Source of the DNA: Promethearchaeota archaeon
GTDB lineage: Archaea; Asgardarchaeota; Lokiarchaeia; Sigyniarchaeales; SOKP01
Assembly (NCBI GenBank): GCA_004524535.1
Contig: SDNY01000094.1
Span: 1-14,597 of the forward strand
Length of the DNA: 14,597 bases
Direction of reading: 5' to 3'
Part shown: piece by piece, positions 1 through 14,597 of the stretch
How the letters are laid out: every line of letters begins with the position of its first letter
Position numbering within the stretch: position 1 is the stretch's first letter
Program-made: the position numbers and the translations under genes
Notes under the pieces: model-generated
The model's input: the letters and a program-made list of their open reading frames with translations, nothing else
Databases searched by the model: none
Told to the model about the DNA's origin: nothing

Positions 1-3000
1 CCGAACGGAACCCAAATAGGAACACCGGATAATATGACGTTTATTGGCGGAATTAATTACAATTATACCTGGAACGTGAATTCATATGAAGCATTGGATA
101 ACTATTATTTCAATATCACCGCATGGGATACCTCGAGCAATGAAGCGAATGAAACACGATATTTCAATATAACCTCACCAGGAGATACGACCGATCCGAT
201 AATAAATATTACATACTATGATGGATATGCTGAATATCTCACAGGTTCAATTGAAGTCAATGTCACAGCATATGATGAGACTTTATTAAGAGAAGTTGCT
301 CCTGTACAAATTATATTCTTCTATCCAAACGGTACTATTATAGCAATTTATAATATGACTCATTTGAGTGGTGATATCTATAACTATACATGGAGTGTGA
401 ATTCTTATTCGCCATATTTTAACTATTACTTCAATATAACAGTATACGATAATAACACTAATCAAGCGTCGGCTATGAGATATTTTAATATAACTGATAA
501 CATCAATCCAAGTATAAATATCAACGAATATGACTCTCAGGCAGATTATGGTACTGGATCTATATTTGTTAACGTAACCGCAACTGATAACCACAAATTG
601 CGAGCTATTAATCCAGTTCAGTTAGAAATATATTATCCGAACGGTACATTATTAGGGATTTACAATATGATATATCAAGGAAATGATATCTATGAATATA
701 TTTGGAATGTTGATAACTATTGGCTTTGGAACAACTATTATTTCATTGTTGCAGCATACGATAATTCAAGTAATTCATATTCTACAGCTCAGACCAAATT
801 CAATATAACAGATACAATATGTCCAAATGTTATCATAGACAGCTACATGGATGAAGGTGAGTATGGTAACGGGAAGATCGAATTATACGCTACGATTACA
901 GATAACCATGCAATACAACTTCCAATCAACATCACCTTTTATTATCCAAATGGAGCTGTTATCGGTATATACGAGATGATTATTCTTGGGAATGACGAGT
1001 ACAAATTTACATGGTCTACCTTAGGTTATGATCATGACTTTAATTATTACTTTATCATCAATGCTTCAGACCCATCAGGAAACTTGAACGAAACAGAAAC
1101 TCGAATATTTAATATTGTAGATTCAGTTAGACCATCAATAACCGTTAATGACTATAATGAGATTGTTGAATATGGAATAGGCGACTTAAACTTAACTGTT
1201 ACAATAACAGATAATTATGGTCTAAACGAAACGAATCCAGTTGTTTTAAAAATTTACAATAGTACTAATGATATTATCTCGCAAGATTTGAATATGATTC
1301 ACTTAAGTGGAGATCTATATTTTTATAGTTGGAATCCAGGAACAACTCCCGTAGGTGATAATTATTACTTTAAAATCACGGCAACTGATAATAACACAAA
1401 TTCACGTACTACTAACAAAAGATCTTTCGATATAATCGATACTGTTAATCCATCGGTTATAATCATCTATAATGATGATGAAGCTGCTTATGGAACAGGC
1501 TCAATTGAAGTCAATATAAGCGCTTATGATAATTATCAATTGAATTCAACTAATCCTGTACAAATAACATTCTATGAAACAGATGGTACGATTATAGTAA
1601 CAGATCTAATGATCTTAATTGGACCAAATTACACCTATAACTGGCTTGCCGATCCTTATTATCAACCTGAACTTAATTACTATTTTACTATTATAGCTTA
1701 TGATTCTTCAGAGAACTCAAACACGACAACACAAGTATACTTTAATATAATAGATGAGATTATACCTATTATTCATGGGGCAAGCTATGAATCTCAAATT
1801 GCCTATACTAATGGAACTCTCACTGTTATCTGCAATATCACCGACAATCATGAAATCGAGTATGTTCAAATATTGCTCTTCGAACCAGATGATACACCAA
1901 TAGGAACATTTTATATGAACGAATCGGGAGACTATTATTCTTTTAGCTGGTTTAATCCAGAAACTTATAATCTTGATATTGATTATTACTACAATATTAC
2001 CGCTTATGATAAATCAGGAAATATCAATAATCCTTTCTGGAAATTCTTTGATATAATCGATATGGGAACGCCTAATATTACTATTACTTATTGGACAACT
2101 GATGTAGAATGGAGTACAGGAACATTTAAAGTAAATGTAAGTATCGAGGAGAATTATCAATTAGACGATGTACTAATTTCACTGTATTATGTAAACGGAA
2201 CTGTATTTGTTATCAATGATACTATGAATCAATGGGGTTCAGATGATAAGGAGTATTCTTATGAATATTTCATGGGTGGAGAACCACTAGAAGGAGGTTA
2301 TCGCTTTAAAATATTTGCGAATGACACGTCGGGTAATTTTGAGGACACTACGTATACGCTATTCGATGTCGTAGATACTGTGAAACCATGGGTATATAAT
2401 GTACAACCAGATGATACACAAGATGATGAATATCCTGGTGAGATTGAAATCACTGTAACTGTGACGGATAATTATAGACTAAGAACTTTTGATCCAGTTG
2501 AAATAACATTCTATTATCCAGGAGGTTCTATCTTAGGAACTTATACAATGAATTCGATTGGTGGAGATAATTATAAATATACTCTCAGTGGATTAAACAA
2601 TTATGCACCAGCTGCGACATATTATTTTACAATTACGGCTTATGATAGTTCATTAAATTCAAATACAACCATCGCACAAAACTTCGAGATATTAGATATA
2701 ATTATATTCCAAGATCTGTATACTTACAAAGACTACATGTTAAAAACGACAAAAGTAAGATATTATCAGAATCCATCGAAATCGAATTATCTAATAGTTA
2801 TATCACCATTAGTTGCTCAGATTGCTCATATTGAAAAGCAATTAAAATTGGGAATAAATCCTAACACGACTTTAGATGCATATAGGCAATCAATCAGAGA
2901 TGCAATTGCAGCCGCATTAGACGCACATCCAAATGCGTATGTTTATATCATGGATTCGGATCTCTATTACACTTATAGTAAATCAGTTATAACTCGTGAT

Positions 3001-5811
3001 TTCAATGGATTTTTACTTTACGCGAAAAGTAATGTATGGGCGAGAGAGAACTTTTATTTCTCGTATTCTGTACTTGGCAATCCAAGAGATTACTATAGAT
3101 ACACTTTTCAAAAATATCAGTATTATATTCGAAATAAAGTGTTACAATTAAAGACCAGTTTTTACGAACATACAAATGTCTTACTTTTAGGTGATTCCCT
3201 CGAGTTTCCAGAATATTGGGTTTATTCCTATTGGGGTGGTAGCTACAGATATTACTTTTCAGACAATTATTATCTCTACTATGGTTCACAAATGTTAGGT
3301 GCTGTTGGTCGATTGCCAATTGAACAAGCAGCGTCATATTTTGCAGAAGTAAAAAATGTTAATTTTGCGAAAATTGCTCATATAGGAGGATATAGGGGAT
3401 CTTATAATTGGAACTATTATAAACAGTATTACTTATTTTACAGACAATTCTATCTTTGGGGCAAAGGATATTCCTATGTTTATTGGGAACCAGATATGCA
3501 ACCTACAACGTCTCGTTTGGCGAACTCGGATTTGATCATTACAGGCTTTAATGGTCATATGTATTATGGACCATGGTATGGAGGAATGGCGTATAATCCG
3601 AATAATATGGATCCTTCAATTATGATGGGATATACAAACGCAATCTCAAACACAATTTATTACGACTTTTCATTAGGAACATTTGTCTCAGCATACGGTA
3701 CTCAAGCGGTAGATAATGGTGTTTCTATTTTAGGTAGTACGGGGGATACATATGTAGTGTCATATACTAATTATTTAGATAGTGCATACATCCAAATGTA
3801 TATTCTTCATGAAATGTTTAGAGGCAGATATTCAACTTTAGGACAAGTGTACAGCGCTGCGATTAATTATTATAAATACTACTGGTTCGTAGCTGAAATT
3901 CGTTTATTAGGAGATCCGGGTCTAGATGTAAGCAGTTTAGATGACCCTGGAGAAGAAGTTTTAGAAGATCTGCCCGAAAATTTTGAAGCTCAGTATTGGA
4001 ACTTAGATTATGGAATTAATGATACAGGACAAGGAGAAATGCTTTATTTCAACATCACAGATAAATATACAACGCCAGGTGTGACGGAAATGATAGCAGA
4101 ACAATCATTTGCATCTGTATTTGGAGGAGACTTAGTTGTACCAACCTTTGTATATTACCTTGAAATGAATAAAAATCAATCACTAGTAGATGTAAAACTA
4201 AAATTAGCGGATAATGTAACAATACCGATAACGAGTCCTATAACACTTGATGGATATCTCCTTACTGAAAATGGTAAAGTCGCAATCCCTAATGTCAACA
4301 TTGAAGAACAGACAACGTATCCAAAAATACAAATTGAGGAGACTGAACTTTCATGGAAACGAGTTTATACCATAACGGTATTTCCAGCGGAATGGAAAGA
4401 GGGTCAACTGGCGTTTATCTGTTCAAGGGATATAAAATTAGAATTTACAATAGAAAACGTTACTTTGGCACCGAACGCTACTCTGAGTTATGAAGAAGTT
4501 GAATTTTCCAAACTCGTTTATTCTACAAAGAATTATACACTTGGATTTAACATCAATAATTTGATCGATAGCACCGAAAACGCCACCATGGTAAATATAA
4601 CGGTTTTAATTCCATTTGATTTGACTATTTTAGATTGTACATCTGGAAATTTAACTATTCAAGAATTATTATGGTGGAATATTACGTGGAACGTTGGAAA
4701 TATTACTTACAGTAAATATTTATTCATTGATTACTTAGCACCTGATGCAATTTCTGATTCATTCGAACGAAATATTACTATAATAGTAGAATATTTCTCA
4801 GAAGGAGGAATAAAGTATAATAAATACAATGTTACTCTAATACTGAAATATTTAAAGGATAATTTAGTCAATCTAAAGTTGGATGATATAGTCATAGAAG
4901 ATATAGCGCAATTTTACGTCTCTGATACTTTAAGCATAGAATTTATTGTCAATAATTCTGGTCATTTAAAAATCAGTAAAATTCAAGTACAGGTTCTTGC
5001 CGATGGTGTAGAAATTTATTCATATACCATTGCTTCGCTTAATCCTGGGTTTTATGTGATATTTGCGATATCCACTTCATTCACTAACGCTGGAGATCAT
5101 GATGTTGATATACAGATAAATGCACAGGCCTTAGGAATCGAATCTAATGAAGTTGATAACTTCTATTCCACTACAATTTCGGTATTAGCTGCTCCAGCGG
5201 GTCCAGGAGGTGTTGCTCCAGCTGGCGGTGGTGGAGGTGGTGGAGGTGGTGAAGAAGAATTTCCGTTCCTAATCCTTTCAATCATAATCATAGCAATAAT
5301 AGGCTGTGTTGTAATAGTCGGAGTGAATGCTGTAAGAAGACGTGGCATGGTTAGCCTCAAAGAGGCAAAAAAAGTAGCAAAAAAAGAAATTGATAAAGAA
5401 ACAGGTATTGAGGTCGAACCAAAGAAGCTAGTTTGTATTGTACATAGGGGTCCTGTAGCGGGTGGGGTCTATATATGTCCTAACTGCCAATCGATATTTT
5501 GTGAGAAATGTGCATTAGCTTTAAAGAAAAAGGGAGAAAATTGCTGGACATGCGATCATGAGATTACTATACCTGGAGCTAAAAAGATTTCTAAGGAAAA
5601 AACAATAGTTAAAGAAAAAGATAACATGAAGAAGAAAAAAATTGTTGCGACTGTAATTCCAGATGGAGAACATAAAAAGAAAACAAAACAAAAAGATGCC
5701 AAATCATCGAAAGCAGATGAACAAGAGAAATCACAGACAAAAGAATCTAAATTTAGAATAAGAGCAAAACTTAAAGATAAAACTCCCGAAAAAGAAGATA
5801 ATGGGAGATAA
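1..5811 (+). CDS. Giant single-pass cell-surface protein, 5'-partial: Ig-like repeats, C25 (gingipain-like) fold lacking Cys, C25-propeptide-like, DUF11-like, CARDB, poly-Gly, TM, cytoplasmic RING-like Zn finger, Lys-rich tail
   Basis: The frame is open from base 1 (PNGTQIGTPDN before the ATG at 34) and starts mid-repeat, so the true start lies upstream. C25 motifs: NYLIVIS (2785), VLLLGD..FP (~3178), SD.YY, VGRLP (3304), NGH (3550-3558), LLGDP (3904). CARDB-like segment 4867-5184 (VNNSG, LNPG, ESNEVDN). Gly9 at 5224-5250. TM at ~5260-5325 followed by RRR. Zn finger at 5434-5553. Confidence 0.9.
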   Translation, partial: PNGTQIGTPDNMTFIGGINYNYTWNVNSYEALDNYYFNITAWDTSSNEANETRYFNITSPGDTTDPIINITYYDGYAEYLTGSIEVNVTAYDETLLREVAPVQIIFFYPNGTIIAIYNMTHLSGDIYNYTWSVNSYSPYFNYYFNITVYDNNTNQASAMRYFNITDNINPSININEYDSQADYGTGSIFVNVTATDNHKLRAINPVQLEIYYPNGTLLGIYNMIYQGNDIYEYIWNVDNYWLWNNYYFIVAAYDNSSNSYSTAQTKFNITDTICPNVIIDSYMDEGEYGNGKIELYATITDNHAIQLPINITFYYPNGAVIGIYEMIILGNDEYKFTWSTLGYDHDFNYYFIINASDPSGNLNETETRIFNIVDSVRPSITVNDYNEIVEYGIGDLNLTVTITDNYGLNETNPVVLKIYNSTNDIISQDLNMIHLSGDLYFYSWNPGTTPVGDNYYFKITATDNNTNSRTTNKRSFDIIDTVNPSVIIIYNDDEAAYGTGSIEVNISAYDNYQLNSTNPVQITFYETDGTIIVTDLMILIGPNYTYNWLADPYYQPELNYYFTIIAYDSSENSNTTTQVYFNIIDEIIPIIHGASYESQIAYTNGTLTVICNITDNHEIEYVQILLFEPDDTPIGTFYMNESGDYYSFSWFNPETYNLDIDYYYNITAYDKSGNINNPFWKFFDIIDMGTPNITITYWTTDVEWSTGTFKVNVSIEENYQLDDVLISLYYVNGTVFVINDTMNQWGSDDKEYSYEYFMGGEPLEGGYRFKIFANDTSGNFEDTTYTLFDVVDTVKPWVYNVQPDDTQDDEYPGEIEITVTVTDNYRLRTFDPVEITFYYPGGSILGTYTMNSIGGDNYKYTLSGLNNYAPAATYYFTITAYDSSLNSNTTIAQNFEILDIIIFQDLYTYKDYMLKTTKVRYYQNPSKSNYLIVISPLVAQIAHIEKQLKLGINPNTTLDAYRQSIRDAIAAALDAHPNAYVYIMDSDLYYTYSKSVITRDFNGFLLYAKSNVWARENFYFSYSVLGNPRDYYRYTFQKYQYYIRNKVLQLKTSFYEHTNVLLLGDSLEFPEYWVYSYWGGSYRYYFSDNYYLYYGSQMLGAVGRLPIEQAASYFAEVKNVNFAKIAHIGGYRGSYNWNYYKQYYLFYRQFYLWGKGYSYVYWEPDMQPTTSRLANSDLIITGFNGHMYYGPWYGGMAYNPNNMDPSIMMGYTNAISNTIYYDFSLGTFVSAYGTQAVDNGVSILGSTGDTYVVSYTNYLDSAYIQMYILHEMFRGRYSTLGQVYSAAINYYKYYWFVAEIRLLGDPGLDVSSLDDPGEEVLEDLPENFEAQYWNLDYGINDTGQGEMLYFNITDKYTTPGVTEMIAEQSFASVFGGDLVVPTFVYYLEMNKNQSLVDVKLKLADNVTIPITSPITLDGYLLTENGKVAIPNVNIEEQTTYPKIQIEETELSWKRVYTITVFPAEWKEGQLAFICSRDIKLEFTIENVTLAPNATLSYEEVEFSKLVYSTKNYTLGFNINNLIDSTENATMVNITVLIPFDLTILDCTSGNLTIQELLWWNITWNVGNITYSKYLFIDYLAPDAISDSFERNITIIVEYFSEGGIKYNKYNVTLILKYLKDNLVNLKLDDIVIEDIAQFYVSDTLSIEFIVNNSGHLKISKIQVQVLADGVEIYSYTIASLNPGFYVIFAISTSFTNAGDHDVDIQINAQALGIESNEVDNFYSTTISVLAAPAGPGGVAPAGGGGGGGGGEEEFPFLILSIIIIAIIGCVVIVGVNAVRRRGMVSLKEAKKVAKKEIDKETGIEVEPKKLVCIVHRGPVAGGVYICPNCQSIFCEKCALALKKKGENCWTCDHEITIPGAKKISKEKTIVKEKDNMKKKKIVATVIPDGEHKKKTKQKDAKSSKADEQEKSQTKESKFRIRAKLKDKTPEKEDNGR
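184..2694 (+). repeat. Eight complete, diverged tandem Ig-like repeats of ~102-107 aa, plus a partial one at 1-183
   Basis: Units start D-x3-P (DTTDP, DNINP, DTICP, DSVRP, DTVNP, DEIIP, DMGTP, DTVKP). They share Y-G-x-G, TDN, V-x-I-x-FYYPNG, M, Y-x-Y-x-W and YYF-x-I-x-AYD-x-S-x-N, and end F-[ND]-I. They carry many N-x-S/T sequons. Confidence 0.9.
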
Positions 5812-10249: not shown

Positions 10250-11431
10250 ATGGCAGTATTGATTTGGAGTCCTATTGAAAGAGCCTTATGGGGTTTAGCA
10301 ATAGGTATAGGAGTGATTTGTTCTGGATTTTATATCAATAGGGGAGTGAAAAGAGAAAATCGTTGGGAAAAAACCTTGATGACGGGATTTGGAATGTTTA
10401 TTCTTTGTTTATCGCTAGCTAGAATATTTTATTTTCTTGGCGAAATGGAAATTATTGGAGCTTATAAAAACCAAGGATTCTATGGTGACTACTCAAAAGT
10501 TTCTTCAAGTTATGAATTTTACAATAGGATGTATTACTTAGTAGTCGATATAGGTTTAATCTTTTTCTTCTTCCTCTTTGAATCTTACATTAAGCGAACA
10601 AAATTTCTTTTAACAATCGTGAGTGTGGTTATTGTTATAATTATTCAAATACTTCCATTTAATTCTGCATACATGCTACATAATTATCTTTTTTTCCCTT
10701 TTAGTATGCTTATATTTATCATAATGTTTCTTTTATTAGCAAAAAATTCTCAGAGAGAGTTTAAGGCCGTAGCACCTCTAATATTGTCTGGACTAATGAT
10801 GGGTGCTTTAGCGGCAGTATATAGTGGACCAGAATTTAAGGAACTAGGGGTAATCCCATTAGTAATCCCACCTATTCTTTTTACTTTTGCAACACTGCTT
10901 CTCATAGCACCAATAGTAATTGATCCAGAGAATATCTCCGAATCTTTTATTTATGGGGTAATTGGATTTCTTGTTTTTTTTATCGGAATAATGACTATAG
11001 TATTCTTTTATACAACAGCACTTGAGTTGTTTATACCAATTGTGGTAGTAATTACGGTTCTTATTTACTTCTTTTTGAAAATAATAAAGGTGATGAGAAC
11101 TGCTGAAGCTGATAGAATTAAAAATGATGTTCCCTCTGTAATAGGGATGTTCGCTCGACCTAAAAAGTTAACAGAAGAGGAGGTATCAATCTCCAAAGAA
11201 AAAAAAACATGTTTGGTTTGTAAAGGAAGATTGGTCAGAGCTATGTATATCTGCCCAGAATGCAGTACTTTCTATTGTAATAAATGTTCTGACGCATTGG
11301 TGAATTTGGAAAATGCATGTTGGGTATGTGGGACTGCCATTGATGAGTCAAAACCCGTTAAACCTTTTGAGCCAGAGATAAAGGAGAAGAAGGAAAAAGC
11401 TGATAAGGTAAAAAAACAGAAAGGAAAATAA
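10250..11431 (+). CDS. Polytopic membrane protein (~9 TM) with C-terminal C4C4 RING-like zinc finger
   Basis: About nine hydrophobic segments, then RPKKLTEEEVSISKEKKT and CLVC-x10-CPEC-x4-CNKC-x10-CWVC (11210-11329), then a Lys/Glu-rich tail. Confidence 0.88.
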   Translation: MAVLIWSPIERALWGLAIGIGVICSGFYINRGVKRENRWEKTLMTGFGMFILCLSLARIFYFLGEMEIIGAYKNQGFYGDYSKVSSSYEFYNRMYYLVVDIGLIFFFFLFESYIKRTKFLLTIVSVVIVIIIQILPFNSAYMLHNYLFFPFSMLIFIIMFLLLAKNSQREFKAVAPLILSGLMMGALAAVYSGPEFKELGVIPLVIPPILFTFATLLLIAPIVIDPENISESFIYGVIGFLVFFIGIMTIVFFYTTALELFIPIVVVITVLIYFFLKIIKVMRTAEADRIKNDVPSVIGMFARPKKLTEEEVSISKEKKTCLVCKGRLVRAMYICPECSTFYCNKCSDALVNLENACWVCGTAIDESKPVKPFEPEIKEKKEKADKVKKQKGK

Positions 11432-11490: not shown

Positions 11491-12012
11491 ATGTCTGAAA
11501 TAATTGAAAGATTTAACGAAAAAATTAAGATTTTAGAAGAAACTCTACCATCTCTCAAAGGAGAGATTAATTGTTGTGCCCTTACTTTAACGACTGTTCT
11601 TGAAATTCTTGGCATACCAGAATTACAAAGTTTTTATTTTAATAATCTTGCTGTTCCACTTGCGGGAGGTTTTGGTGGTTTTAAGTCAGAAAAAGGTTGG
11701 AATGGCCCATGTGGTGCTGTCTGTGGGGGATGTGCCGCCATAGGAATAATTATAGGGGGTCAAAAAAAACTTAAATTTAGAGATCATATGAAAGTTTATC
11801 AAAAAGCAGCGACTTATGCCCATAATTTCGAAAAAGAATTTGGAAGCGTTGCTTGCAAAGATTTATGCGGCACAGATTTTAGCGATTTGAATTCTATTAA
11901 TCTTTATATGAAAAATAAAATATGGGAAAAACAATGTTATAAATATGTGGTATTTGGCGTAGACCAAGTAAAGAAACTAACATCGCTCGACCTAAAAAAG
12001 AAATGGCAATAA
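11491..12012 (+). CDS. C_GCAxxG_C_C family putative redox-active protein
   Basis: NCCA, GGFGG, GPCGAVCGG, FEKEFGSVACKDLCG and the C-terminal KQCYKYV match the family's cysteine pattern. Confidence 0.88.
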   Translation: MSEIIERFNEKIKILEETLPSLKGEINCCALTLTTVLEILGIPELQSFYFNNLAVPLAGGFGGFKSEKGWNGPCGAVCGGCAAIGIIIGGQKKLKFRDHMKVYQKAATYAHNFEKEFGSVACKDLCGTDFSDLNSINLYMKNKIWEKQCYKYVVFGVDQVKKLTSLDLKKKWQ

Positions 12013-12204
12013 ATTGCTATGCTCTTATATCAATGTTTTAAAAAAAAAGCCAAATACTTATATTTTTTTATTCTCTCAATAATTTTAATAAAATTCTAAT
12101 TTCAAAATTAAAAATTTTTATACTAATAATGCCTAAATTTTATTATAATTATAATTTTAAAATCTAAAAAATTTTTAAATCACTATTAGAAAAGGGGTAA
12201 GAAG

Positions 12205-12447
12205 ATGGCTAATGATGAAAGTCGTAAGTGTCCCTACTGTGGTGCGCTCCTGCGACACCCATATTGGCAACATATACAGTCAAACCACCCTGGAGAATAT
12301 TCTAAAAACGAAACATGGATACAGCTTTATAAGGATTATTGCTCAATGGGGATGTCACATGATATGAGCGTTATGGTCATTGCTGAACTGTTTAATCAAT
12401 CTAATGCTGATGTCGAATCTTACTTAAAGGAGAGTAAAGTAATTTAG
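12205..12447 (+). CDS. Small C2H2-type zinc finger protein, 80 aa
   Basis: CPYC-x9-H-x4-H (CPYCGALLRHPYWQHIQSNH) followed by a helical C-terminal half. An SD-like AAGGGGT lies at 12192-12198 and a TTTTTAAA TATA-like box at ~12172-12179. Confidence 0.82.
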   Translation: MANDESRKCPYCGALLRHPYWQHIQSNHPGEYSKNETWIQLYKDYCSMGMSHDMSVMVIAELFNQSNADVESYLKESKVI

Positions 12448-12650
12448 CTAGAATTTCTACCAAAAAATCTACTTTTATAATAATCACTATTTTTCTCTAT
12501 ATCATCGATAGGATCATTAAAGTCTGTGATATTAATTTTAAAAGAATTAATTTTAAAATCTAAGTTCTTATAAATATCATTAATGCGTCTAACGTATTGC
12601 GGATTAAATAATATACTTGAAACATCATTAAAATGAGGTGTCTTTATCAT
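12444..12650 (-). CDS. Hypothetical 68-aa ORF or gene remnant
   Basis: An open frame in very AT-rich DNA that overlaps the convergent C2H2 gene by 4 nt. No motif recognised. Confidence 0.3.
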   Translation of the reverse strand: MIKTPHFNDVSSILFNPQYVRRINDIYKNLDFKINSFKINITDFNDPIDDIEKNSDYYKSRFFGRNSS

Positions 12651-12885
12651 TTCATGACAATCCTTAGAATGCTAAAATTAAAAATAATTGACCAATAGAA
12701 ATCCAGAATGATAAAATAGCAATTATCGGTAAATTATTTGAAAAAATACGACGTTGAATAAATAATAAAAATTACCTTCACTTATTTTTAATTATAGGAT
12801 AAAATAGCCTGAGAATCCCATTTACACTAATATTTTTTTTCATTATTAATATTAATTAGAATAAAATGCAAAAATCAGAAAAATA

Positions 12886-13512
12886 TTGAATTTAAATCAG
12901 ATTCATATAACCTTTAACAGTAGAGAAGATTATAGAATACTAACACCTATTCTAAATCAAATTCCACATAAACTTTATTATTTCACTGCTGAAATTAAAA
13001 GCACTGGCCAAAAAGATGAACATTTAGACTTTTTTAATAAAAATTCGTCTTTTTTGAAAGAGAAGATACCTAACTTAATAATTATCCAAAAAGAAGTTGA
13101 TTATACCGATTATATTGAAATTATACAAGAATTATCAAAAATAATAAAAAAAGAGAAGGGAACTAATCCAAATTGCGAATTTTTTATAAATATAGGTACC
13201 GGCTCTAAAATTACCGCTATCGCTTCTACAGAAGCCGCAAGATTATGGAATTGTAAAGCTCTATATGTCCACTCGACTAAATATGACCCATTGACTAAAG
13301 GAGCAAGACATAAGGGTGAAATGATAATCAAATATCCCCCTATTTTTCCCGCTCAAAAACCAATGAAAAAACTTATTAAGGTCTTAAAAATTATTGATAA
13401 CGCAATAAAAGAGCAATTGTCGCTGGTTGGAGATTTTATGTCGGCTTGGAGAATATACAAATGTTGGTGCAAATCGGACTGCTGGGATGGGCGTGTTACG
13501 TTATTATCCTAA
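12886..13512 (+). pseudogene. DUF6293 / CARF-like (HFX_2341, Csa3-like) regulator, C-terminally truncated; the last ~32 codons are out-of-frame cas6 DNA
   Basis: Rossmann/CARF-like pattern: IHITF...RILTPI...KLYYF...DYIEIIQELSKII...FFINIGTGSKITAIASTEAA...ALYVH...PIFP...P...IKVLKII. The expected winged-helix domain stops after its first helix (~13410). The DNA then turns GC-richer and the translation becomes atypical (WRIYKCWCKSDCWDG). Confidence 0.75.
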
Positions 13513-13552
13513 GAAATATCTTTCCGAAGACGATTTATTGAGAAATGAGTAA
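13409..13552 (+). pseudogene. cas6: 3' remnant of CRISPR endoribonuclease Cas6 (last ~47 aa)
   Basis: The alternative + frame reads KSNCRWLEILCRLGEYTNVGANRTAGMGVLRYYPKKYLSEDDLLRNE*. L-x-x-L-[AG]-EY-x-x-VG-x-x-RT-x-GMG matches the Cas6 C-terminal glycine-rich loop (GhGxxxxxGhG, first Gly replaced by Asn). An in-frame TAA at 13406-13408 lies immediately upstream. Confidence 0.85.
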
Positions 13553-13633
13553 TTTATTTAATCCTATAAAGTAGGTTTTTGGTTAATAATAAGTAAATTA
13601 TTATATTGAAAAAAGCATAGACTAATTAAACAT

Positions 13634-13648
13634 AAAGTATATATTTTT
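13634..13648 (+). promoter_or_regulatory. Putative BRE-TATA promoter of the toxin-antitoxin pair
   Basis: aaagTATATATtttt lies ~25-35 nt upstream of the ATG at 13671, which would fit a leaderless or short-leader transcript. Confidence 0.35.
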
Positions 13649-13670
13649 AACATATCATATTGAGAAAACT

Positions 13671-13916
13671 ATGACCACACCGAAAAAAAAAGAGGAAAAA
13701 GGCATACATCAATTGGGAGGAGACGAAAATCTATTTTTTGATCTATCACAGGAAATTATAATGACCTCCCAAGAAGCAAAACTTATGGAAAAAAGCTTAA
13801 AACGGATGAATATTAATGATAAGGTCAAAAATTTTTCTAAATCTAACCATCAATTTTATAAAAAATTGAAAAATAATAATTTTATTATTTCATTAGAAGA
13901 ATTAGAGAAATTATAA
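13671..13916 (+). CDS. Putative antitoxin (81 aa) of a GNAT toxin-antitoxin module
   Basis: A small gene 14 nt upstream of the GNAT toxin, on the same strand. QEIIMTSQEAKLMEKSL loosely resembles the toxin-binding half of DUF1778/TacA antitoxins. Confidence 0.55.
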   Translation: MTTPKKKEEKGIHQLGGDENLFFDLSQEIIMTSQEAKLMEKSLKRMNINDKVKNFSKSNHQFYKKLKNNNFIISLEELEKL

Positions 13917-13930
13917 AAGGAAATTCTAGT

Positions 13931-14434
13931 TTGACAAATCTAGAACTAAAAGATTTAAACGAATCTGCAAATTCAGATAAATTTTCATGTGGAGAAGAGA
14001 AAATAGACTTTTTCTTAAAAGACCTTGCTAAATTTAATCAAAAAAATAAATTTTCAAGAACTTATATATTTACTAAGGAAGAAAATAACGAAATTATTGC
14101 ATTTTTTTCAATTTTAGCTTCACAATTAAACACTGGTGATACTCGAATCTTCGGAATTGATAAAGTACCAGTTATATTATTAGGTAGATTAGGTGTAGAT
14201 GTCAATTACCAAGGGAAAAATTTCGCGGAAGTTATGATAAGAATTGCTATTGAAAAGGCTTTAAAAGTAAGCAAAATAATAGGTTGTCGTTTACTATTAG
14301 TGGAAACATCTTTGAAGATGAAATCTTACTATCTTGAAAGACTATCCATAAACTTCAAATTGTTTAGAGATAAGAAAGAAACTTCAATTATATATATCGA
14401 TTTATTAGAGTATGAGCTTGGGTTCAAAATATAA
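13931..14434 (+). CDS. GNAT-family acetyltransferase toxin (TacT/AtaT-like)
   Basis: FSCG...IDFFLK..A..NQ....SRTY, IIAFFSI, PVILLGRLGVD..YQGKNFA and A..VS..IGCRLLLVE are characteristic of tRNA-acetylating GNAT toxins. TTG start. Confidence 0.88.
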   Translation: MTNLELKDLNESANSDKFSCGEEKIDFFLKDLAKFNQKNKFSRTYIFTKEENNEIIAFFSILASQLNTGDTRIFGIDKVPVILLGRLGVDVNYQGKNFAEVMIRIAIEKALKVSKIIGCRLLLVETSLKMKSYYLERLSINFKLFRDKKETSIIYIDLLEYELGFKI

Positions 14435-14465
14435 CTCTTATATATAAGTAAGAAAAAAACTCCTT

Positions 14466-14481
14466 GCGAACTAAAGTTCGC
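14466..14481. repeat. 16-bp palindrome GCGAACT-AA-AGTTCGC
   Basis: Perfect 7-bp inverted arms with a 2-nt centre, 32 nt downstream of the GNAT stop. Confidence 0.7.
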
Positions 14482-14510
14482 TTCTAATCACAAAACTTTT
14501 TTTCCTTGAA

Positions 14511-14597
14511 CTTAATTTGAGAGCATTCGCTAGGTATGGTAATCTAATTACCTGCCTGCGACCCTCTAGCACCAATGCAACCCACTCTCTAATTAAG
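14511..14597. other. GC-richer, nested self-complementary segment at the window edge (structured RNA, mobile-element end, or 3' end of a minus-strand gene)
   Basis: Arms cttaatttgagag / ctctctaattaag pair at 12 of 13 positions. Inner pairs are gcatt/aatgc, gctag/ctagc and ggtaat/attacc. GC is 38 of 87 bases. Confidence 0.4.

Follow-up and report, generated by a model that had tools for sequence, protein, structure and literature searches.

How did the front part of a CARF-like regulator gene come to stand directly before the tail of a cas6 gene, in another frame, in an archaeal genome in which we found no other cas gene? The question arises from the window, by which we mean the whole stretch of DNA that was analyzed, the entire 14,597-nucleotide (nt) contig SDNY01000094.1 (C25) of a Promethearchaeota archaeon. 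The genome (G000) is a metagenome bin of 3.66 Mb in 198 contigs, with 30% G+C. An earlier note had read positions 12886-13552 of the window as a hidden scar left by a deletion that removed everything between the two genes. Our analysis identifies two remnants of known kinds, a pseudogene of a Csa3-like regulator and a piece of cas6, and both breakpoints are placed to within about 5 nt. With slightly better than even confidence, we interpret the junction as a scar of illegitimate recombination, most likely one large deletion in a progenitor arranged like the related genome G062. The argument turns on the following features (ORF, open reading frame; aa, amino acids):

12886..13408, + strand: first 174 codons of a Csa3-like regulator of the DUF6293/HFX_2341 family, with a complete CARF (Rossmann-like) domain and linker helix, identified by PF19810, a family profile and structure models
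12886..13512, + strand: the present open frame, 208 aa with a TTG start, made up of the CARF stub and 34 out-of-frame residues from cas6 DNA, and ending at a chance stop
13409..13413, + strand: the junction, with a possible 5-nt microhomology AAGAG; the DNA is cas6-derived from 13409, and regulator-derived DNA may reach 13413
13409..13552, + strand: 3' end (last 47 codons and the stop) of a cas6 gene like those of type I loci in Promethearchaeota, with the Gly-rich loop GANRTAGMG, no start of its own, and out of frame with the upstream ORF

A truncated regulator, a cas6 tail and their junction

The 208-aa ORF matches PF19810 (HFX_2341_N, formerly DUF6293) over residues 5-133 (E 3.8e-14, 53.6 bits, cut-off 30) and has weak, sub-threshold matches to the CARF families Card1 CARF, Cas_APE2256, Csm6 and Csx14. 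PF22665, the DUF6293_C winged helix, gave no match in this ORF; in a 268-aa relative from genome G013 it is found at residues 153-264, alongside PF19810. When a profile of 12 relatives was compared with the window copy, only positions 5-178 of 270 could be aligned (E 9.8e-86), which bears out the earlier note's claim that the regulator loses its winged helix at about 13410. In sister genera, the full-length relatives have 262-275 aa, and over the first 174 window residues their identity to the window copy is 57-66%. A natural end of DUF6293 homologues at this point was not seen: all 17 relatives in one alignment (18 in another) extend about 90 residues further, and none stops where the window copy loses homology.

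Structure prediction agrees with this division. The AlphaFold2 model of the full-length G013 protein, with a predicted local distance difference test (pLDDT) score of 90.9, consists of a Rossmann-like domain (residues 1-150), a linker helix (161-177) and a winged helix (192-263). A Foldseek search of the Protein Data Bank (PDB) with this model returned solely CARF proteins and the related entry 1xmx, and the Csa3 entries 6wxq, 2wte and 6w11 matched over the whole chain. The window ORF, modeled with the same relatives, reached block pLDDT values of 70-97, mostly about 90, over residues 1-150 and of 45-69 in the tail (residues 150-208). The PDB matches listed for this predicted model are again CARF proteins or 1xmx, for example Csm6 (6tug) with a root-mean-square deviation of 3.3 over 144 columns. 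We conclude that the break in this Csa3-like regulator falls exactly where the linker helix ends and before the DNA-binding domain begins, which makes the window gene a truncated member, that is, a pseudogene, of the DUF6293/HFX_2341 family. The 208-aa ORF should hence not be annotated as an intact 'DUF6293 family protein'.

The DNA that follows had been said to encode, in another frame, the Gly-rich loop region of Cas6. The frame at 13409-13549 translates as KSNCRWLEILCRLGEYTNVGANRTAGMGVLRYYPKKYLSEDDLLRNE; these 47 residues close with ...GEYTNVGANRTAGMGVLRYYPKKYLSEDDLLRNE, followed by a stop that coincides with the stop position of the relatives. The fragment alone falls under the cut-off of 25 for PF10040 (CRISPR_Cas6; E 0.001, 20.2 bits, model positions 67-88 of 89), which the full-length G013 Cas6 passes with 29.9 bits. 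Residues 244-288 of this 290-aa Cas6 are 71% identical to the translation of window positions 13409-13543 (E 8.4e-18), and a profile of Cas6 from 16 relatives matches the fragment at positions 245-289 of 290 (E 2.1e-25), confirming the assignment. A search with the cas6 tail against 5.8 billion proteins gave 44 candidates; all of those with E ≤ 1e-5 were Cas6-like (38/38), as the earlier note had predicted, 37 carry PF10040, several are named Cas6 in their source, and the top identities are 92% and 88%. The DNA of the stub is 80% identical to cas6 of loci L043 and L042, and its amino acid identity reaches 88% with that of L045. A complete Cas6 with both RRM-like domains and the catalytic region is not present, positions 245-289 being all that remains. 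The stub cannot be an enzyme, since it represents only the last 16% of the protein, without a start or the RRM-like domains. We found no other piece of cas6 in the surrounding island or in the genome.

DNA alignments place the end of the regulator side at 13406-13408 and the beginning of the cas6 side at 13409-13415. In the Logan assembly of sequencing run X1, the probable source of the window, a contig of 6,952 nt (depth 50.6) covers 12000-13438 with zero mismatches and thus continues 30 nt beyond the junction, and a contig of 1,070 nt (depth 45.6) spans 13409-14478. A third X1 contig of 6,217 nt (depth 48.8) carries an intact cas6; it is identical to the window over the 30-mer 13409-13438 and unlike it before 13409, where its translation, YDYKFVNQDY, belongs to the body of the intact gene. 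Because this third contig shares exactly 13409-13438, the 30-nt overlap of the X1 contigs represents a graph branch point. Every 31-mer across 13408|13409 is present in the reads; irrespective of the tail that comes next, the regulator stub is therefore joined to cas6 in the reads themselves and not through a mis-join. The span across the junction that the earlier note wanted checked is hence provided, by contigs of the probable source sample. In runs X2, X3 and X12 only short, mostly diverged pieces of the stretch were found; none crosses the junction, and they speak neither for nor against it.

These data also bear on the possibility that two unrelated metagenome sequences were joined during assembly at a short shared word. 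Such an artefact would be compatible with a bin of 198 metagenomic contigs and with the break of the X1 contigs at 13409-13438, the 30-mer common to the intact-cas6 contig. The regulator-stub contig nevertheless runs 30 nt into cas6 without a mismatch at a depth of 50.6, and the depths on either side agree (50.6 and 45.6), which leaves an artefact hardly credible.

The earlier note had also pointed to GCAAT at the junction. This word does occur at 13402-13406 and again at 13413-13417; we rejected it as a junction repeat and regard the pair as a chance occurrence, because 20% of the contig's 24-nt windows hold a repeated 5-mer. Judging from the codons of relatives, which need not be those of the true parents, the regulator parent would have read GCA ATA AAA GAG and the cas6 parent ...TAT AAG AGC AAT TGT, and AAGAG (13409-13413) may be the likelier microhomology.

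A second, independent orphan cas6 tail was seen in another genus (L054:2884-3188, on contig C227 of G019). It has 40 codons and is 73-76% identical. It is immediately preceded by a G+C-rich palindromic repeat (core CCCCACGCATGTGGGG) in two copies, between which lies a 32-nt spacer. The pair resembles a two-repeat mini-array, and the repeat is of a type unlike the 37-nt array repeats of the relatives.

Gene order in relatives and the origin of the scar

Relatives that carry both genes were searched for, as the earlier note had proposed. Six have them on one contig, and one of these, G062, sizes the gap. There the regulator comes first (C24:75389-75892, - strand) and cas6 last (C24:36833-37693, - strand), with the same orientation. 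The two ends of this interval align with the window, and the equivalent points are 38,414 nt apart. With the regulator, the cluster and cas6 in this order on one strand, one deletion could yield exactly the junction of the window. The interval of G062 encodes a HEPN/nucleotidyltransferase pair, a Csm6-like CARF-HEPN protein, two Cas_NE0113 proteins, a transposase fragment, and a type III effector set made up of Cas10 with three RAMP proteins. It also holds a 7.5-kb array, in which a 37-nt repeat recurs about 100 times, and a type I operon with Cas4, a Cas8-like CXXC protein, Cas7, Cas5 and Cas3. The cas6 locus of another relative, G054, includes Cas7, Cas5, Cas3, Cas4, Cas2, Cas1 and an array, and its Cas7 is a TIGR02590 Csh2 protein of type I-B.

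In a progenitor of this kind, a Csa3-like DUF6293 regulator and cas6 would have occupied opposite edges of a CRISPR-Cas cluster on the same strand, as they do in G062. A break just past the linker helix, at about codon 175 of the regulator, would have been joined to a break at about codon 245 of cas6, probably via a few bases of microhomology (AAGAG), and all in between would have been lost. In G062, this would amount to 38.4 kb comprising the type III module with Cas10 and Csm6, the array of roughly 100 repeats and the type I operon. We infer the single event, the microhomology, and the size and content of the loss; the order of the genes in the relatives is observed. A single deletion is the simplest account, plausible and unproven. 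Neither stub has decayed, with zero stops in 174 + 47 codons and all invariant family columns retained, and therefore the event appears to be recent.

Several observations weigh against a single deletion at this site. The regulator-first, same-strand order occurs in only one of the six relatives. In G013, G051 and G048, all members of one genus, the regulator is immediately preceded by cas6 (and in G048 followed by the array); in G054 and G023, the two genes are divergent; and cas6 also comes first in the nearest metagenome contig, L071. When the flanks were compared with the cas loci of relatives (blastn at short word size; tblastx with a 58.9-kb region of G062), nothing but the two stubs matched, so the flanks do not confirm that a cluster stood in place. 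Within the genus, neither cas6 nor the regulator of the scar was found in the other genomes (0/8), and Cas1 was found in none of nine (0/9); several of these genomes are incomplete, and the genes are to be taken as not found rather than absent. This lack of cas genes, together with a compact empty site in congeners (see below), implies that the full cluster may never have stood in this genome. The intact cas6 homologue of run X1 lies outside the genome bin on the 6.2-kb contig, at a depth (48.8) like that of the window's contigs (45-51), and hence 'an organism without CRISPR-Cas' is not established. Finally, the X1 contigs are a second assembly of the data from the probable source sample, compared at contig level, and not independent data. 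The earlier note's claim of one deletion is thus permitted by the order in G062, and it is weakened by the rarity of this order and by the lack of flank homology.

The prevailing gene orders leave room for a history of several steps. A progenitor with cas6 directly upstream of the regulator, or with the two genes divergent, could have undergone an inversion with breakpoints in both genes, or an unequal crossover (tandem duplication), followed by deletions. Five of the six relatives with both genes on one contig, as well as L071, have such a starting arrangement, and from the layout of G054 one can reason that an inversion would give exactly the N-terminal CARF part joined to the cas6 tail on one strand. 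At least two events would be required, however, and searches with family profiles in six frames revealed neither the head of cas6 nor the C-terminus of the regulator in C25:12001-14597 or C195:1-2300, the two sides of the island (best E 0.2). Moreover, the nearest relatives of the regulator stub do not have these arrangements. In a weakly resolved regulator tree, the stub's closest matches are the pair from G102 and G062 (66% and 64% identity), with which it is grouped together with G054 (SH-like approximate likelihood ratio test, 83). The nearest Cas6 proteins to the cas6 tail (88% and 86%) come from genus g11, the genus of the same regulator pair. We therefore consider a history of several steps unlikely, and a single large deletion in a G062-like cluster remains the reading that we prefer.

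The island around the scar and the remainder of the genome

The scar sits inside a genome-specific island of at least 4.2 kb, which includes the following features:

12439..14597, no strand: left part of the strain-specific island, which resumes past an assembly gap at C195:1-2023 of the same genome
13671..14434, + strand: an 81-aa ORF and a 167-aa GNAT-like ORF, a putative toxin-antitoxin-like pair (weak Acetyltransf_1 match, E 3.9e-4)
14425..14597, no strand: contig-end repeat that broke the assembly, 95% identical to C51:1-172 on the opposite strand, with part of it on C144

Synteny with three congeners (G008, with 91-95% identity, and G005 and G002, with about 80%) breaks at window positions 12433-12438 and picks up at C195:2023-2084. 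In G005 and G002, both island flanks are separated by only about 20-50 nt. The island sequence is incomplete, because the assembly gap between C25 and C195 cuts through it. The 81-aa/GNAT-like pair at 13671-14434 is island cargo outside the scar, and the strain-specific island and the genus without detected cas genes suggest that either the cluster or the ready-made scar probably came by horizontal transfer.

In the latter case, the deletion would have happened elsewhere, and a scar preformed in a donor would have been carried in passively on a mobile or recombining island that also bears toxin-antitoxin-like modules. The absence of the island from three congeners with a compact site fits this account, as do the GNAT-like pair, a PIN/MazE-like pair flanked by a 40-nt duplication on C195, and a genus without cas genes in the genomes searched (Cas1 0/9, cas6 0/8). 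Run X2, from another study, contains a 258-nt contig that is 99% identical to 12761-13018. The account suffers from the lack of an identified integrase, attachment site or element end in the island, whose sequence is also interrupted by the assembly gap. We see import of a finished scar as a serious possibility that falls short of an even chance; it would alter the place of the deletion and not the nature of the scar, which we still read as most likely the product of one large deletion in a G062-like progenitor.

We next consider whether a CRISPR-Cas system is left in the genome. Searches of the bin for Cas1, RAMPs, Cmr2, Csm1 and Cas7 (PF05107) gave no match, nor did tblastn searches with ten other proteins of the G054 cas locus; no cas gene besides the stub was found in the bin. 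A k-mer scan for CRISPR arrays yielded four candidates, all of which were rejected as coding tandem repeats, and the relatives' 37-nt repeats had no match in the genome at up to 8 mismatches. The orphan arrays and Cas10 for which the earlier note had suggested looking were thus not found by the k-mer scan and the Cmr2/Csm1 searches. The organism or a sister strain may retain a CRISPR-Cas locus that was missed by binning. A candidate solo CRISPR repeat was noted in the other half of the island, at C195:1188-1224 (- strand; locus L098). It matches the G054/G062 repeats at 26 of 37 bases (20 of 22 at the 3' end) and is the sole site in the genome that fits the core pattern with up to 2 mismatches, with an estimated ∼0.4 such sites expected; it ties with one other site for the best full-length match and is suggestive only.

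Do the stubs still have a function? Most likely both are dead. The regulator stub lacks the DNA-binding winged helix and ends in 34 nonsense residues. One could suppose that the CARF-only ORF is a working gene, either as a stand-alone ligand binder (a cyclic-nucleotide sponge) or as a dominant-negative partner of the intact, distant Csa3-like paralogue on contig C185 (257 aa, with PF19810 and Csa3_N). The core of the stub is complete, every invariant family residue is retained up to I164, the model fold is confident and resembles ligand-bound CARF structures, and the end branch is not lengthened (0.26 versus a median of 0.19). The untranslated cas6 stub is equally well preserved, however, so this preservation reflects recency and not selection. 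The ORF also has a TTG start and a nonsense tail predicted with low confidence, neither Cas10 nor another known cyclic-oligoadenylate synthase was found in the genome, and the stretch was found in no RNA run. A working CARF gene is hence very improbable. More doubtful still is the idea that the protein is made and either mops up a cyclic-nucleotide signal in soluble form or poisons the C185 paralogue as a subunit; an Asgard archaeon would then possess a CARF 'sponge' of natural origin. The scar itself is tidy, ordinary gene decay.

Other features of the island and the contig were recorded. The pair region 13671-14434 has a 68%-identical DNA copy at C152:20501-21050. The contig-end repeat at 14425-14597 has about threefold depth in X1 and is also high in X2 and X12 (another sample, another study); it contains a short hairpin, GCGAACTAAAGTTCGC, and has no tRNA or Rfam match. 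No tRNA gene or Rfam family that could be an integration target was detected in the window, where one snoRNA-like match remained below threshold (E 0.87). Direct and inverted repeats near the scar were tried as element ends and rejected; they are just AT-rich pairs of 70-93% identity, which we take for chance. On C195 (L098), a direct repeat of 40 nt (1091-1130 and 2099-2138, 87.5% identical) duplicates the 3' end of a 97-aa gene and brackets weakly matching PIN (166 aa) and MazE/AbrB-like (75 aa) ORFs, resembling a target duplication around an inserted toxin-antitoxin module. Elsewhere in the window, two proteins end in similar cytoplasmic Cys-rich tails (C..C ... CP.C ... FC/YC.KC ... CW.C), as if they had a zinc-ribbon or RING-like module in common: a surface protein of over 1,936 aa with many NxT/S repeats (1-5811) and a multi-pass membrane protein of 393 aa (10250-11431).

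DUF6293 proteins, cas loci and comparison with known systems

The earlier note had further linked this DUF6293 protein to CRISPR regulation. In seven related genomes and one metagenome contig (G013, G051, G048, G054, G023, G062, L080 and contig L071), members of one DUF6293 clade are indeed found next to cas loci or at their edge; in L080, a tandem DUF6293 pair adjoins cas3, cas5 and cas7. The link is not new, as Turgeman-Grott et al. (2024, PMC11434293) already report it for haloarchaea. The cas adjacency supports, from a second archaeal phylum, the published view of DUF6293 proteins as regulators of cas genes, and loci like that of G062 are places where a cyclic-oligoadenylate response of DUF6293 proteins could be examined. 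Among the papers listed for Asgard archaea, CRISPR-Cas and Csa3, none dealt with this subject as far as its title or abstract start shows. Eleven other distinct DUF6293 loci share a conserved neighborhood, metK - (HTH-CBS) - DUF6293 - 335-aa gene (HTH, helix-turn-helix). In G000, the corresponding housekeeping slot between metK and the 335-aa gene (C98:22100-30945, L099) measures 6.6 kb and has no DUF6293 gene; it contains a 782-aa ORF, a 444-aa membrane ORF and a 76-aa duplicate of the N-terminus of metK. Damaged DUF6293 copies were also seen in G013 (C50, L017:772-1434), where the C-terminal part is just a 156-aa ORF, and in G023 (C36, L046:6086-6886), with an in-frame TAA. Decay of accessory DUF6293 copies seems common.

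The window is of modest value as a cleanly resolved case of the way in which an entire composite CRISPR-Cas cluster can be lost from an Asgard (Promethearchaeota) archaeon, perhaps by a single deletion mediated by microhomology. Degraded or lost CRISPR-Cas loci, with cas pseudogenes and orphan arrays, are common in prokaryote genomes. As in these, stubs of two edge genes remain here and all between is missing, comparable to the orphan cas6 tail in G019. The difference is that the breakpoints are preserved to about 5 nt and that a relative shows what may have been removed. Compared with Cas6 (PF10040), the stub can be aligned over all of its 47 codons with the C-terminus of the protein, and the glycine-rich loop and the stop position are shared; the loci of the relatives carry Cas7, Cas5, Cas3, Cas4, Cas1 and Cas2.

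Csa3 (Csa3a) of Saccharolobus solfataricus (PDB 2WTE, 6W11 and 6WXQ) is a transcription factor with a CARF and a winged helix-turn-helix (wHTH) domain that binds cyclic tetra-adenylate (cA4). The full-length relative shares its two-domain plan over the whole chain (Foldseek E 8e-7 to 1e-5, target-normalized TM-score 0.51-0.57), and the window stub matches the CARF half. In contrast to Csa3, the window copy has no wHTH; the sequence identity is only 8-11%, and the likeness is known here from predicted models.

Another close counterpart is HFX_2341, a DUF6293 protein of Haloferax mediterranei. Turgeman-Grott et al. (2024, PMC11434293) report that it has an HHpred similarity to Csa3a of 99.74% and is a global repressor; when it was over-expressed, every cas gene tested of a type I-B system was repressed. 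The same paper describes HFX_2341 as vertically inherited, with homologues also in species without CRISPR-Cas. The window copy belongs to the same N-terminal domain family (PF19810), and its full-length relatives also carry PF22665. It differs from HFX_2341 in being truncated and lacking the DNA-binding domain, and in its clade some copies are immediate neighbors of cas6, cas3 or a type III module.

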